Shown: piece by piece, positions 41,425 to 47,520 of the stretch
How the letters are laid out: each line of letters opens with the position of its first letter
Numbering within the stretch: position 1 is the stretch's first letter
Sequence record: PQ850622.1
Source of the DNA: Escherichia phage OliverMaurmann_Bas86
Reading direction: 5' to 3' (one strand)
Length of the DNA: 64,000 nt
Program-made: the position numbers and the translations under genes
The notes under the pieces: generated by a model
Told to the model about the DNA's origin: nothing
The model's database searches: none
The model's input: the letters and a program-made list of their open reading frames with translations, nothing else

Positions 41425-43458
41425 TTAGTGTTTACCTTTACAGTAATCTGAATTACAGATCACCCTGTTTTCTTTGTTCAGTGAGCAAGTTTCTGCATCA
41501 CGCCACGGAATTTGTTTATAACAGACTGCACAAAACCCAATTGAAGTCCAGAGGGCTTTTGTAAACTCAGCTGTTCGTTGTCCATCGTAACTGACAACTG
41601 TTTTTCGGAGAGAGGTTGACTTTTCTGGAAATGTCTCCGCTTTCTCAGCGGGTACCTCCTTTGGGGCATTCTTTGGACCATAAACAGAGATGGCATAAGT
41701 ATCACCACCACGTTTTTCCAAATACGAATTAGGAACATCTGCAAGTGTGATGTCCCCTGAACGTTTTGCTGAGCTGACCATTACAATCATACGGCTAAGC
41801 ATACGTTCATCAACACGAACAGCTACTTCAGGACGACGTGGGTTGGTTGTGTCTACTGCTTTAGTCCAAATATAACCTTCAGATAGAGTAACATTCTTTA
41901 CTTTATCTTTGATTTCTTTGGAGCAGATATAACAAACGTCTTCACCACGAAGTTTACTCATTTCGTTGTCAAACTCGAAATCAGTCTTGACTTCACCACA
42001 GATAGCACATACACCCAAAGGCACATCTTCTTCCTCTTCAGAGGTTTTAGATAACGCTTCGAAGCATTCTGGATGCCAGTATGCCTGATAAGCAAACACA
42101 GCCTTACGAGCATCTTTCCAGTCAATGTGCTTATCACAACCACCACAGTCACCATGAGAGTGAGATTCCCAGAACTTACGAGTGACTTCTACACCATTCT
42201 TAGTGATGAAGGAGTCCTCTGCATCAAAAGGGATATCATCATCAAAATCAGCAGTAGTGCTTTGAGGCTCCTTATCTGTAGCATCAACAAACAGCCCTGA
42301 AGTTAGTACGAGGCGAATCATACTGTCCACTTCGGAGATACAAGCGATTGTCCCGCGATATACTACCTTTGGGTTTTCAAGAGCCTTAAGATATTCATCT
42401 TTGGCTACGTTGTGAACATCCCCTTCGACATACTCTTGGGCTTTATCATCGTAGATGTAACCAACCATCTTACCACGATCTGTGTTGTTATAAGCATGGA
42501 ACTCGTGAGGAGTAATATCCACACGACCATCACGACGATAAGGAAGACCACGATCGGCAGCCAGTTTGTTCTGGTCTTCAATCGCTTTACGACGACGAAT
42601 GTCTCCGCTTGTCACGCCGGGCTTGTCGTCTTTGTTTCCGTAAATGTCGCTTGTGCTGCTGCTTGGTTTGTTTGTCTGTTGGTTCTGATAAAGAGAGGAG
42701 TTCGAGTAATAGCCGCCCCAGCGACTCGTTACCGTAAAAACCGGAAGCTTGTGCTCCACCTCTTGAACCAGAGTCATACGACTGTTAGACACATCAAAGA
42801 TATACTCAGTTCCCACTTTACACTCGAAGTGGTCATTGATACGGTTCTTGTGGGATTTAGAACGCTCTAAAATCCACATAAGCATAGCTTCTTCAGAAGC
42901 CCCAAACCAATCCAAACCACAGCGGGCTAGGTGGAAAGGACGCTCATCATTACGGATAATGTGAAGCGTGTTGTCTTTAGCATCATGCCAAATCAAAGTG
43001 AATGCACCATCCAGTTTTTGGATAGTCTCTGCTGCTCCAATGGTGTTAATTGAGTGGCAGATGTTTTCACTATCAACTTCGAAACGCTTACTGTCAGGAA
43101 GGAGATCTTGATCTAACAGGGTTCCATTATGAACCAGAGTAATATCCCCGTGAGTAAATGGGTGAGCATTTCGAGCATTGACAGCCCCACGAGTGGCATG
43201 TCGGCTGTGACCAACAATCCACGAAGGAGGAACTACGTAGTTCGTAAGCCCTTTGGTAATATTTGTATATTCTGTCTGGAGCATAAAAGCATAAGAAGGA
43301 AGAGCTTCTTTATAAGAGAAGACTTGCTTTTCACCTTTACGCTGACCAAACACACCAGTTGAGTGCTGTCCACGGAAAACACCAGCATACAGAAGTTGGT
43401 TGAAAATGTCCAAATCTGCTGAGGTCATGTTGCCGCCAGCTAATACGATACCACAAAT
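41425..43458 (-). CDS. class-II (Ntn) glutamine amidotransferase with Cys-rich C-terminal domain; probable ATT start
   Basis: In-frame extension upstream of the first ATG reads stop-K-I-CGIVLAGGN-M...FRGQHSTG, i.e. the Cys1 nucleophile and RGxxxxG motif of Ntn amidotransferases; AGGTGG lies 8 nt upstream of the ATT. Confidence 0.55.
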   Translation of the reverse strand: MCGIVLAGGNMTSADLDIFNQLLYAGVFRGQHSTGVFGQRKGEKQVFSYKEALPSYAFMLQTEYTNITKGLTNYVVPPSWIVGHSRHATRGAVNARNAHPFTHGDITLVHNGTLLDQDLLPDSKRFEVDSENICHSINTIGAAETIQKLDGAFTLIWHDAKDNTLHIIRNDERPFHLARCGLDWFGASEEAMLMWILERSKSHKNRINDHFECKVGTEYIFDVSNSRMTLVQEVEHKLPVFTVTSRWGGYYSNSSLYQNQQTNKPSSSTSDIYGNKDDKPGVTSGDIRRRKAIEDQNKLAADRGLPYRRDGRVDITPHEFHAYNNTDRGKMVGYIYDDKAQEYVEGDVHNVAKDEYLKALENPKVVYRGTIACISEVDSMIRLVLTSGLFVDATDKEPQSTTADFDDDIPFDAEDSFITKNGVEVTRKFWESHSHGDCGGCDKHIDWKDARKAVFAYQAYWHPECFEALSKTSEEEEDVPLGVCAICGEVKTDFEFDNEMSKLRGEDVCYICSKEIKDKVKNVTLSEGYIWTKAVDTTNPRRPEVAVRVDERMLSRMIVMVSSAKRSGDITLADVPNSYLEKRGGDTYAISVYGPKNAPKEVPAEKAETFPEKSTSLRKTVVSYDGQRTAEFTKALWTSIGFCAVCYKQIPWRDAETCSLNKENRVICNSDYCKGKH

Positions 43459-43535
43459 TTTCTAATCCACCTGAAGGGTAAACCCTTTCATCTAATTAAC
43501 CTTTAAATGCGCCCTGTATAAGAGCGCCCGTTGTG

Positions 43536-44636
43536 TTACAGCAGTCGTTCTAATTGCATTTCCAGAAGGTCTGGAATATAACCAGTGACGTTATCATCAC
43601 TGCTACCTGATTCACGCATCAATGCAAACATGTGACGAATTTCACGAACCGTTGCGATTCGAGTGCTTTCAATCTGAGGGGTGTAGTAGGTCATGATCTC
43701 TTCGTAGACACTGTTGGCATTACCGCGCACATATCCCAAGAAACCATAGAAGTCATTCATATCACGTAAGTTGATAAGGACTTCACCATCAGGGCCAGTC
43801 TGTTGCACACGAACACGACCAACCAAAGTCACAGATTGCTCACGACAGAAGAGAATATCACGAGCAAGACGATACCCTTCAGTGAGATCACTGTCTCTTG
43901 GAGTATAGTCTAGGGGTAGATGTTGAATCATAGGAGCGAAGCGCAGCTCATTCAACTTCTCAACATAAGCTTCATTGTCTAAATCTGCATATTCAACAGC
44001 CAGTTTCTTGAGAACCAAGAAGCGGTTGACCAGATTCAGAAGTTGGCTCTTTTTCCACTTCGGCTCTGAGATACGGAACTCAACAGAACCAAATTGAGAT
44101 AGAGGCAAAAGATTAAGGGAGGTATATTTATCCCAGCTATTAACAAGAGAGTGGAAGAAAGCTTCCCCGTCTCGGTTGAACGCTGACGAAGCATTCATAA
44201 CTTGTGCTTGAACGACAGCAAAAGCTGGACAGAAGTTGCTACGATAGCGATGGTATCCAGAACATTTGAACATCATCTTTTCATAGAACGTCCATCCAAG
44301 AATAACTTTCTTAAGGATGTTACTATCAGCGTCACGCATATCCATATGAACATGAGTGGAGCAGCGCCAAGTTCCCTCGGCTCCAGAATCCTGTACTGCT
44401 TCACTCAGATTGTTAATAGCACGAAGTAATTCTTCACCGTTGTAAGGTCGTGCACATACTAATTCACAACCATCACGAAGAGAGCCATCTTCAGTACAAA
44501 CCCACATATCAGCGTCAATGTCAGTTGTACCTTCGACTTCTAACTCAATACCAACACCACACTGAAAAGCAATACTTGGATGCGGTTCAGATAAGCGAGG
44601 GTTACGGTATCCAAAAACTTGTGCTACGGTTGTCAT
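43536..44636 (-). CDS. glutamine-synthetase-fold carboxylate-amine ligase (amidoligase)-like protein
   Basis: GVGIELEVEG and STHVHMD resemble the GxExE and HVH motifs of YbdK-type ligases. Confidence 0.45.
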   Translation of the reverse strand: MTTVAQVFGYRNPRLSEPHPSIAFQCGVGIELEVEGTTDIDADMWVCTEDGSLRDGCELVCARPYNGEELLRAINNLSEAVQDSGAEGTWRCSTHVHMDMRDADSNILKKVILGWTFYEKMMFKCSGYHRYRSNFCPAFAVVQAQVMNASSAFNRDGEAFFHSLVNSWDKYTSLNLLPLSQFGSVEFRISEPKWKKSQLLNLVNRFLVLKKLAVEYADLDNEAYVEKLNELRFAPMIQHLPLDYTPRDSDLTEGYRLARDILFCREQSVTLVGRVRVQQTGPDGEVLINLRDMNDFYGFLGYVRGNANSVYEEIMTYYTPQIESTRIATVREIRHMFALMRESGSSDDNVTGYIPDLLEMQLERLL

Positions 44637-45268: not shown

Positions 45269-46078
45269 TTATACAATCTGGAGTTTAGAGGAGAATTTAT
45301 CCGCTTCTTTAACATCGTTGCTGTTGATGATGTTATGAAGCTTTTCGATTGGAAGACGAGAGTGAAGTGACATCAACACTTCCATATCACAGCCTTGAAC
45401 AACCTTATCCACTTGCTCATAAACAAACTTGCGGGTTGACTTCTCACCAATCCAGAAGTTAGAAAGAGAACGATATTCAATACCGTAGTCCTTGTAACGA
45501 ATAGCAGAAGCCTTTCCGTACAACTCTTTACGACGAGTGTCTTTATCCATGATTACAGCTGGCAAGGACAGGAAGTAATCACACAGCACACCCAACATCA
45601 TTTGAGTTTGTCGATTGATCTCCAAAGTTCCAGAGACACCGAGGTGCACATGGCCCCCAGCAGTACGCAAACCTTTATCGGTTGCGACTGGTGAAGGGTT
45701 CTTTTGTCCAGTGAAGGCGTTGAAATCAGGAGTACAGCCAAATACAAAAGCTGACGGATGGAATGATTCAAGCTCTTCTGAAGTGAACACATGAGAGCTA
45801 ATCCCAAGCGCTGCTTCCAGACCACGATCATTCAGGATTTTGTTAGTCAGATCAATACCGCGCTGAATATTATCATCAAACGCTTCAAACCCTTTCTGTG
45901 GGTTAATATCAAACTCAGCCAGAACGTTGTCTTCTTGAAGACGAACATCAGGAGCCAGATCAATTTTGTTATCTTTAGAACATCCCAGCTTACCAGCCAC
46001 AGAGGTGATAATACCGGAAGCAGTACGAACAAACATTTCCGGATCCGACCCTATTAAGAATTTACGTTTAGTAGTCAT
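45269..46078 (-). CDS. second amidoligase-like protein (weaker match)
   Basis: FLIGSDPEMF and GGHVHLGV echo the same GxExE / HVH pattern. Confidence 0.35.
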   Translation of the reverse strand: MTTKRKFLIGSDPEMFVRTASGIITSVAGKLGCSKDNKIDLAPDVRLQEDNVLAEFDINPQKGFEAFDDNIQRGIDLTNKILNDRGLEAALGISSHVFTSEELESFHPSAFVFGCTPDFNAFTGQKNPSPVATDKGLRTAGGHVHLGVSGTLEINRQTQMMLGVLCDYFLSLPAVIMDKDTRRKELYGKASAIRYKDYGIEYRSLSNFWIGEKSTRKFVYEQVDKVVQGCDMEVLMSLHSRLPIEKLHNIINSNDVKEADKFSSKLQIV

Positions 46079-46545
46079 GCTTTAGTCCAACCTTTATGAG
46101 ATAGATAGTTTTTAAATCTGCCACTGTGCACAGCGCCCATGTGGCCTTGATGTAAGTCGTTGCTTCTACAGAAGTCTCTAAGATTGTATATTGTTACAAC
46201 CTCGCCATCTGGAGATCTAAACTTCCAAAATCTAGCATTCCCTTTCACAGCGTTTTCTTCACTGGTCAGAAGTTGGAAATTACTTGGGTGGTTATTAAGT
46301 TTATCGCCATCGATGTGATCAACAGTCATACCATCCGGAATAGGCCCAATAAACAATTCATACATAAGTCTATGTAATAAAAAGTTCCTTGTTATCTTTT
46401 CAGGAGCCTGAACTGTTGTAAACTTAAGATAACCATCTTTATCAGGAAACAGTTTCCTCTGTTTCCCTGTTCTTGCATGGAATATACTACCGTCTTCGAA
46501 CACCAAGAAGGTAGCAACTCCGACTACTAACTCCCTAAATTCCAT
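46075..46545 (-). CDS. HNH homing endonuclease
   Basis: VDHIDGDKLNNHPSNFQLLTSEEN. Confidence 0.55.
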   Translation of the reverse strand: MEFRELVVGVATFLVFEDGSIFHARTGKQRKLFPDKDGYLKFTTVQAPEKITRNFLLHRLMYELFIGPIPDGMTVDHIDGDKLNNHPSNFQLLTSEENAVKGNARFWKFRSPDGEVVTIYNLRDFCRSNDLHQGHMGAVHSGRFKNYLSHKGWTKA

Positions 46546-46569: not shown

Positions 46570-47520
46570 TTAGTCATTGTAATACTCCACGAGTTCATCA
46601 AAAAGGGAAACAACACGAGCACCAGCTTCTTCTGGTGTCATTGAGGAAGGTACTGCTTGCATCAGTCGTTCGATAAAACTGCGAACAGTGATTCTGTCCA
46701 TACGCTGATCTAATACTTCTCGCTTGTGACCTGCACAAGTTGACCAGAGACGCAACCACTCACTCATACTTTCATAATGGTCAGGGTCTTGGTCACGACG
46801 GCGTGCCATACGACGGAGAACTCCATCATTATGGTTTCGTACATAACCATCTCGGTTATCATCAACACCGAACACATTCTGAACCCATACGTTTTCAGAA
46901 AATTCATCAGTGGTGCAAATTAGTGGCAGAAATGCAATTGCACTCATGTCACCATCAAAATAAGTCGCTGCTGACTCATCGGTTGAGTCTACGTCATTAC
47001 TATAACACCAGCGACCAAAGAAGTTACGACTTAAACCAGCTAAGCGTAGAGCTAAACCGATTCGTTGTCGCTTAAGCAACTCTTCCTTGTCTTGTACGCC
47101 TTCCTGAAGGAACTCCATTCCATTAAAATCACCATCCAAATAGCTACGGATGGTCATTAGTCCAGTAAACACCTTGTCTGCTGGATGGTTTCGAAGGTTC
47201 ACGGCAATGGAGTTCACCGAAGTGACAGAGAACATATCTTTATAGCAAGACATTGAGTTAAAAATGTCTGTTGCTTCAACTAAAGCTCTTTCGATATCTT
47301 TAGCCGGCACGCCATAAAAATTGTGAGGCCAGAAGTTAATAACTTCAATTTCTGAAGTTCTGTCACGAAGGCTTGTTCGGTTACGACTTTCACCGTTAAT
47401 GTCTGTAACAGAATACATGTGCATACAGTTAAAAGTACCAAAGCAAGCTCTTCCTTTGAACACTGACTCACCGAAATCCTCTGCCGGTGTTACCGGAGCA
47501 ATCGATGCGGAGATTGACAT
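46570..47520 (-). CDS. hypothetical protein in amidoligase module
   Basis: 316 aa ORF. Confidence 0.35.
   Translation of the reverse strand: MSISASIAPVTPAEDFGESVFKGRACFGTFNCMHMYSVTDINGESRNRTSLRDRTSEIEVINFWPHNFYGVPAKDIERALVEATDIFNSMSCYKDMFSVTSVNSIAVNLRNHPADKVFTGLMTIRSYLDGDFNGMEFLQEGVQDKEELLKRQRIGLALRLAGLSRNFFGRWCYSNDVDSTDESAATYFDGDMSAIAFLPLICTTDEFSENVWVQNVFGVDDNRDGYVRNHNDGVLRRMARRRDQDPDHYESMSEWLRLWSTCAGHKREVLDQRMDRITVRSFIERLMQAVPSSMTPEEAGARVVSLFDELVEYYND

Follow-up and report, generated by a model that had tools for sequence, protein, structure and literature searches.

Probable AUU initiation of a class-II glutamine amidotransferase gene in phiEco32-like coliphages

Where does translation of the glutamine amidotransferase gene of Escherichia phage OliverMaurmann_Bas86 begin? 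The stretch of DNA analysed here (64,000 nucleotides, sequence record PQ850622.1; referred to below as the window) comes from a phiEco32-like podophage (Gordonclarkvirinae), a coliphage. Its amidotransferase region is 99.9% identical to that of Escherichia phage AnnaHegner_Bas87, 98% identical to that of SU7 and about 74–78% identical to that of phiEco32-type phages. A program-made list of open reading frames (ORFs) contains a 667-residue ORF from ATG 43428. An earlier note on this DNA had argued instead for a start at an ATT codon further upstream, on the grounds that initiation at the ATG would delete the catalytic cysteine of an N-terminal nucleophile (Ntn) amidotransferase. The analysis presented here agrees with that proposal. 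On the best explanation the gene is, with high probability, a phiEco32 gp83-type class-II (Ntn) glutamine amidotransferase translated from the AUU at positions 43458–43456, and the assignment of the start codon to this ATT is secure.

Assignment of the start codon

The amidotransferase gene lies on the minus strand, which reads 5' to 3' as ...CAGGTGGATTAG AAA ATT TGT GGT ATC GTA TTA GCT GGC GGC AAC ATG ACC... and is translated around the start as stop-K-I-C-G-I-V-L-A-G-G-N-M. The frame runs through TAG (43464–43462), AAA (43461–43459), ATT (43458–43456) and TGT (43455–43453), and the final methionine of this segment is encoded by ATG 43428–43426. The sequence AGGTGG (43472–43467), a Shine-Dalgarno (SD) element with a computed anti-SD duplex energy of -5.9 kcal/mol, is separated from the ATT by an 8-nt gap (ATTAGAAA). 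Frame, codons and SD position are all as the earlier note had described them. The in-frame TAG and the Cys codon are separated by AAA and ATT alone; with no ATG, GTG or TTG in this interval, the ATT is the only codon able to bring the cysteine to position 2, in keeping with the claim that no other initiator is possible. The full coding sequence (CDS) of this gp83 homologue would thus comprise 677 codons, from ATT 43458 to a stop at 41427–41425 (41425..43458, minus strand).

In class-II (Ntn) amidotransferases the mature protein begins with the nucleophilic cysteine, which follows either the initiator or a cleaved propeptide; the active site also includes an Arg for the substrate carboxylate, an Asn-Gly oxyanion hole and an Asp for the alpha-amino group. 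The window protein displays this arrangement, with a Cys codon directly after the initiator, conserved glutamine-site residues and Pfam matches above cut-off. No variation is seen among 36 homologues at Cys2, Gly3, R86, H110-N111-G112 and D129-S130, and M1-C2 of the 36-homologue profile align to residue 1 (Cys1) of mature E. coli GlmS (1xff) and PurF (1ecb). The glutamine-site residues R86, HNG and D129-S130 align with the GlmS segments RWATHG, VHNG and TDTE, and the profile alignment likewise shows the family segments RxATxG, HNG and D-S/T. The N-terminal ∼240 residues match Pfam GATase_6 (53.7 bits, cut-off 27) and GATase_7 (25.1 bits, cut-off 25), which places the Ntn/class-II glutaminase domain at about residues 2–241 (42736..43455, minus strand), beginning at the TGT (43453..43455) that encodes the catalytic cysteine. 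The identification of the CGIV... segment as the Ntn nucleophile block is well supported by the invariance of Cys2 and Gly3 and by their alignment to GlmS and PurF. Indeed, about 42 of 49 database homologues start MCG[IL]V, as expected if the cysteine must follow the initiator directly, and in the homologue alignment the catalytic domains begin at the Cys and not downstream of ATG 43428.

Initiation at ATG 43428 would produce a protein that lacks the N-terminal Cys and that carries a degenerate, non-glutaminase domain. The codon is canonical, and both the SU7 record and the program-made ORF list use the ATG at this position (internal Met11; 43426..43428, minus strand). However, Met is encoded here in just five of the 21 clade loci; the remaining 16, phiEco32 among them, have a Leu codon (CTG or CTC). 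Nor is the ATG preceded by a good SD. The phiEco32-type phages, in which the next ATG is found 118 codons downstream, would have no start over that whole distance, and the domain retains its complete set of catalytic residues. Moreover, the nine codons upstream of the ATG hold the invariant CGIVLAGG block. Within the clade, seven alternative codons occur in codons 2–9 (C-G-I-V-L-A-G-G) and every one of them is synonymous; since the variation is synonymous only, which is indicative of purifying selection, these codons are translated in the frame of the gene. A start at the downstream ATG is therefore considered extremely unlikely.

The ATT might also be an artefact or a recent lesion, that is, an ATG misread in sequencing or a start mutation that left the gene a pseudogene. 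It is one base from ATG, and non-canonical starts make up only 0.004–0.024% of annotated bacterial starts (PMC5499595). Against this, the exact start module described below was present in 21 of the 21 phiEco32-like loci examined, and the same ATT-TGT was found in all such genomes examined. There are 96 coliphage records that are at least 95% identical across the start region, and further IMG/VR and metagenome contigs have the same ATT, which brings the independently sequenced phages and contigs with ATT, not ATG, before the Cys to more than 100. In addition, the frame is intact and under purifying selection over a range of 70–100% nucleotide identity, and the protein was detected, with nine peptides, in cells infected with the related phage SU10 (PMC4281155). 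Because all relatives share the ATT, sequencing error or recent lesion is excluded, and the probability that we would assign to such an artefact is practically nil. The concern over a base-call error that had accompanied the earlier proposal is in this way answered.

An out-of-frame start at the TTG or GTG triplets that overlap ATT-TGT-GG was also considered and was rejected, since the frames that it would open are not conserved: in phiEco32 such a frame stops after eight codons, and the lineages with ATC-TGC do not contain the triplet.

Recurrence of ATT and ATC in the enzyme family

The codon before the Cys was counted over 87 distinct N-terminal domains, from loci in IMG/VR, metagenomes and cultured phages. 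The start was ATG-TGY in 66 of these domains, with ATT before the Cys in 15, ATC in four, TTG in two and GTG in none. Taken together, ATT and ATC account for 19 of the 87 domains and occur in eight of 50 clusters formed at 60% identity. Outside the phiEco32 clade, where ATT is present in 21/21 loci, at least eight other lineages have ATT or ATC at this position, and parsimony on a neighbour-joining tree gives at least seven changes between ATT/ATC and canonical starts.

Six lineages (the phiEco32 clade and those of loci L028, L056, L057, L061 and L077) have no ATG, GTG or TTG anywhere from the upstream in-frame stop to the Cys. Close relatives can differ at the start, as do L005 (ATT) and L106 (ATG), and alternation between ATT and ATC is seen inside two unrelated lineages (L052/L056/L057 and L028/L126). 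Moreover, four divergent homologues that had been mis-called by gene callers, as either extended or truncated proteins, turn out to share this feature: in all four the Cys codon is immediately preceded by ATT, with an SD at normal spacing, which in two cases takes the form AGGAGGA-N7-ATT. A normally spaced SD accompanies ATT or ATC in many lineages. Over the distinct upstream sequences compared, 11 with ATT/ATC and 61 with ATG, SD pairing is stronger before ATT/ATC, with a mean of -8.4 kcal/mol as against -6.5 kcal/mol before ATG (p = 0.004 in a one-sided Mann-Whitney test that ignores phylogenetic relatedness), and this speaks for ATT and ATC as starts.

The leader is kept across the ATT/ATC alternation, for example in TAGGAGATGAGAAA-AT[T/C]-TGT, and this parallels the AUU/AUC alternation known from infC.

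The start module and its possible role

The ATT is embedded in a 58-nt block (-50 to +7 relative to the ATT; 43451..43508, minus strand) that is the same in the window phage and in phiEco32. No other exact match in the 5.9-kb alignment with phiEco32 (70% identity overall) is as long, the second longest extending over 31 nt. Ten aligned clade members show no variation within the block, whereas the flanking coding sequence is only 20–70% invariant, and the 96 coliphage records have kept the block as well. Its elements are, in order, the ATG of a mini-ORF, a hairpin, the SD, the UAG, the AAA, the AUU and the first codons of the gene. The mini-ORF (43462..43491, minus strand; ATG AAA GGG TTT ACC CTT CAG GTG GAT TAG) has nine codons, encodes MKGFTLQVD, ends 3 nt before the ATT and is in frame with the amidotransferase; neither it nor the strand of the gene had been mentioned in the earlier note. 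All coliphage relatives, and Aeromonas phage BUCT695 as well, have retained its ATG (43491 in the window), its TAG, its frame and its length. The predicted hairpin, UGAAAGGG-UUUA-CCCUUCA (computed fold; 43472..43490, minus strand), lies within the mini-ORF and directly 5' of the SD core.

BUCT695 belongs to the Grimontviridae, and its amidotransferase groups with those of phages that use ATG, such as Cronobacter A24. A 45-nt core in BUCT695 is nonetheless the same module with two changes, one of them a base of the hairpin loop and the other in the SD (AGGCGG), so that the module is ∼95% identical between phage families whose enzymes, that of BUCT695 and that of phiEco32, share only 52% identity. 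Each of the two replaces a residue of the mini-ORF peptide (F to L and V to A, giving MKGLTLQAD), while the ATG, the TAG, the frame and the stem are kept. There was no sign of a function for the peptide itself, both of the BUCT695 differences being non-synonymous. From this distribution, the module would either go back to a common ancestor and be very strongly constrained, or have moved between lineages.

An 8-kb contig from a metagenome-assembled genome (MAG) labelled as uncultured Peptococcaceae (L128, CALKAR010000070.1) also contains the exact phiEco32-type start module together with its flanks. In a pattern search of the genome collection it was the only MAG contig with the module, and it is identical to phiEco32-type sequence; most likely it is a phage contig that was binned into a bacterial MAG.

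A promoter within the 58-nt block was considered and rejected, as the phiEco32 gp36 promoter element (tAATGTAtA; PMC8948821) is absent from it and a sigma-70 scan of the block was empty. An Rfam scan of 43300–43650 returned only chance hits below threshold, and no second copy of the hairpin/SD sequence was found in the 64-kb window. In five loci, L016, L018, L019, L092 (Cronobacter A24) and L120 (BUCT695), the motif AAATGTAA(A/T), which resembles the phiEco32 sigma (gp36) element, occurs 25–45 nt upstream of the amidotransferase start; its carriers are ATG-using relatives and BUCT695. The coliphage clade has ATTTAAAGGTTAA at this position, and a phage promoter may have been lost there.

The in-frame mini-ORF bears on a further explanation, in which translation starts at ATG 43491, the TAG is read through, and a 12-residue propeptide (MKGFTLQVD-x-KI) is autocatalytically cleaved to expose Cys1. 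Conservation of the ATG, the TAG and the length of the mini-ORF would be accommodated by such a scheme, and propeptide-bearing Ntn amidotransferases do exist: B. subtilis PurF, with an 11-residue propeptide, and GltB both gain Cys1 by propeptide cleavage. Unlike in those two proteins, a stop lies two codons before the Cys here, so that there can be no propeptide without readthrough. TAG, which ends four of the 36 long coding-strand ORFs, serves this phage as a normal stop codon, and an inspection of the tRNAs of the window and of stop usage in its long ORFs revealed neither a suppressor tRNA nor a stop-codon reassignment. The single tRNA gene in the window (52393–52470, minus strand) is a tRNA-Arg with anticodon TCT and not a suppressor. 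Moreover, both BUCT695 substitutions change the would-be propeptide, other lineages with ATT or ATC do not have such a mini-ORF, several of them have no canonical start of any kind before the Cys, and the SD is at the correct distance for the ATT. The chance prior for a mini-ORF being in frame is, in any case, one in three. Readthrough is accordingly judged very unlikely.

Initiation at the AUU itself would, as it does in infC and pcnB, involve decoding of this codon by initiator fMet-tRNA. Deformylase and methionine aminopeptidase would then take off the Met, Cys being a permitted second residue, and removal of the Met to expose Cys1 is the step that we infer for this enzyme. The product would have a Cys1 with a free alpha-amino group for glutamine hydrolysis, as do E. 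coli PurF and GlmS. The AUU may be reached by direct SD-guided binding of ribosomes and by reinitiation after the mini-ORF, and probably by both.

Conservation of an AUU start is, to our knowledge, very unusual; E. coli offers two cases, infC and pcnB. The infC gene, which encodes initiation factor 3 (IF3), offers the closest parallel in layout. At the thrS-infC junction, which reads UAA-GGU-AUU and has 3 nt between stop and start, reinitiation accounts for about as much of the translation as de novo initiation does (PMC3592434), and across bacteria infC starts with AUU or AUC, the codon through which IF3 represses (PMC5499595). As in E. coli infC, the AUU of the phage gene is conserved in orthologues (in 21/21 loci, in 96 records and in BUCT695; some infC relatives have AUC), an SD is present, and a stop codon is found 3 nt before the AUU (UAG-AAA-AUU here versus UAA-GGU-AUU). 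Unlike in infC, the upstream cistron would be a 9-codon mini-ORF and not a full gene such as thrS, and the setting is a lytic phage. An autoregulatory loop of the infC kind is impossible here because the product is an enzyme and not IF3.

Two further genes invite comparison. E. coli pcnB, which encodes poly(A) polymerase I, is also an enzyme gene with an AUU start, and its expression is limited by the inefficiency of that start (as cited in PMC5499595); the simplest functional analogy would be a low level of the enzyme. Unlike the phage gene, pcnB has no need of a Cys1 and no junction with an upstream ORF, and its AUU does not recur through a diverse family. Enterococcus faecalis ebpA (PMC4447247) has an ATT start that was predicted in silico and that attenuates expression, the annotation having used a downstream ATG. 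The gene ebpA resembles the phage gene in having a rare ATT start and an annotation at a downstream ATG, and differs in being the chromosomal gene of an unrelated pilus-tip protein in a single lineage.

In one reporter system AUU gave 6- to 8-fold lower expression than AUG (PMC3592434), and AUU is a target of IF3 discrimination (PMC5499595). By analogy with these systems, the weak AUU may have been selected and not merely tolerated, either for low translation or for dependence on IF3 or on ribosome status; the regulatory meaning of the ATT is put forward as a conjecture. A more specific proposal is that the leader constitutes a dedicated control module. On this proposal the invariant mini-ORF/hairpin/SD/UAG-AAA-AUU would copy the infC junction and would tie amidotransferase synthesis to the balance of IF3 to ribosomes or to the flow of reinitiating ribosomes, and the recurrence of ATT and ATC, and not GTG, before Cys1 would reflect selection for such control across phages in general. 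We regard this as a tentative idea that is, on balance, rather unlikely to be correct.

Several points weigh against AUU initiation and a regulatory role for the leader as set out here. The SU10 proteomics offers no peptide from the N-terminus (PMC4281155), which is deduced from the nucleotide sequence. The fold of the leader is no more stable than that of shuffled sequence (minimum free energy z = -0.43), and the hairpin displays no covariation, as its stem never varies among the relatives. The difference in SD strength between ATT/ATC and ATG starts takes no account of phylogenetic relatedness, and the coliphage module has one of the weaker SDs of the ATT/ATC group. The apparent excess of ATT and ATC in the family, set against the annotated bacterial rate given above, is partly an ascertainment effect, because the Cys1 rule exposes non-canonical starts that would stay hidden in other families. 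Finally, the purpose suggested for the AUU, low or IF3-sensitive expression, is argued by analogy.

The phage gene presents an AUU start that is fixed in more than 100 genomes, within an invariant leader that has the geometry of the infC junction. The need for Cys1 makes the true start unambiguous, and the enzyme family is in this respect a clean natural system in which to ask why weak starts are selected. It could show whether phages set enzyme levels via IF3-dependent start-codon discrimination.

Annotation, the enzyme and its gene neighbourhood

In GenBank independent annotators had already put the CDS start on this ATT in two records, phiEco32 gp83 (EU330206, 2008) and Bas87 (PQ850594), which speaks for the assignment made here. 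Truncated annotations begin 10 codons downstream, at the ATG, in SU7 (L002), 11 codons downstream in the RefSeq record of BUCT695 (NC_070977; L120, 2510–2590) and 118 codons downstream in Paul (L004). The mass of 63.8 kDa listed as expected for the SU10 amidotransferase (PMC4281155) indicates a truncated annotation as well. At least 35 of the 60 listed records have no CDS across the amidotransferase start, and in Pseudomonas phage DMTU_1 (L098) a TTG-TGT start was missed and the region split into two ORFs. The truncated predicted proteins are without the catalytic cysteine and so appear inactive, and most deposited genomes of the phage group are affected. A literature search, which did not include the original phiEco32 paper or Iyer et al. 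2009, found no paper on this ATT start. For this gene the ATT start is therefore already in the databases, most of whose records nevertheless have it wrong. Seen as a phenomenon, the gene adds a new and well-conserved member to the few genes that start at AUU.

The enzyme belongs to the same fold family as E. coli GlmS, PurF and AsnB, with which it shares the catalytic set and a Cys encoded directly after the initiator. It differs from these proteins in its initiator, ATT in place of ATG, and in its acceptor part, which is a ∼420-residue Cys-rich region and not a SIS, phosphoribosyltransferase (PRTase) or asparagine synthetase domain. This C-terminal region of 424 residues (41428..42699, minus strand) has no Pfam family and is covered, in part, only by the phage-specific PHROG 4736, of which profile positions 2–497 align to amidotransferase residues 2–514. 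Pfam searches with the whole protein and with the C-terminal 424 residues found no SIS domain. The GlmS label that is common in the records (L-glutamine-D-fructose-6-phosphate aminotransferase or glucosamine-6-phosphate synthase) is not supported, because GlmS enzymes have two SIS (sugar isomerase) domains in their C-terminal part and the C-terminal region here has none. The same region is rich in Cys and contains several CxxC pairs, which suggest zinc ribbons.

Unlike GlmS, PurF and AsnB, the amidotransferase is encoded in a phage gene cluster, together with an Amidoligase_2 gene, a phiEco32-type COOH-NH2 ligase and a RimK-like ATP-grasp enzyme. The Amidoligase_2 gene (43536..44636, minus strand; Pfam PF12224, 34.2 bits) is the upstream member of the cluster, and the Pfam family of this phage cluster takes its name from phiEco32. 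Iyer et al. 2009 reportedly discuss the phage amidoligase/ATP-grasp cluster. Located 3' of the amidoligase gene is a terminator-like hairpin, GCGCUCU-UAUAC-AGGGCGC (computed fold; 43509..43527, minus strand), which shows compensatory changes relative to the GUGCCUC...GGGGCAC of Kuravirus-type phages. A simple terminator scan did not call this hairpin, which is without a T-run; in record OQ689734 a 'terminator' feature is listed beneath a 2.2-kb match to the window.

Further along the cluster, an ORF for an HNH_3 homing endonuclease (46075–46545, minus strand) is situated between a phi32_87-like ORF (46570–47520) and the COOH-NH2 ligase gene (45269–46078). There is no gene at this position in phiEco32, where genes 87 and 86 overlap, and the ORF looks like a strain-specific mobile insertion. 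An HNH_3 gene is also found just upstream of the amidotransferase at an unrelated locus (L010).

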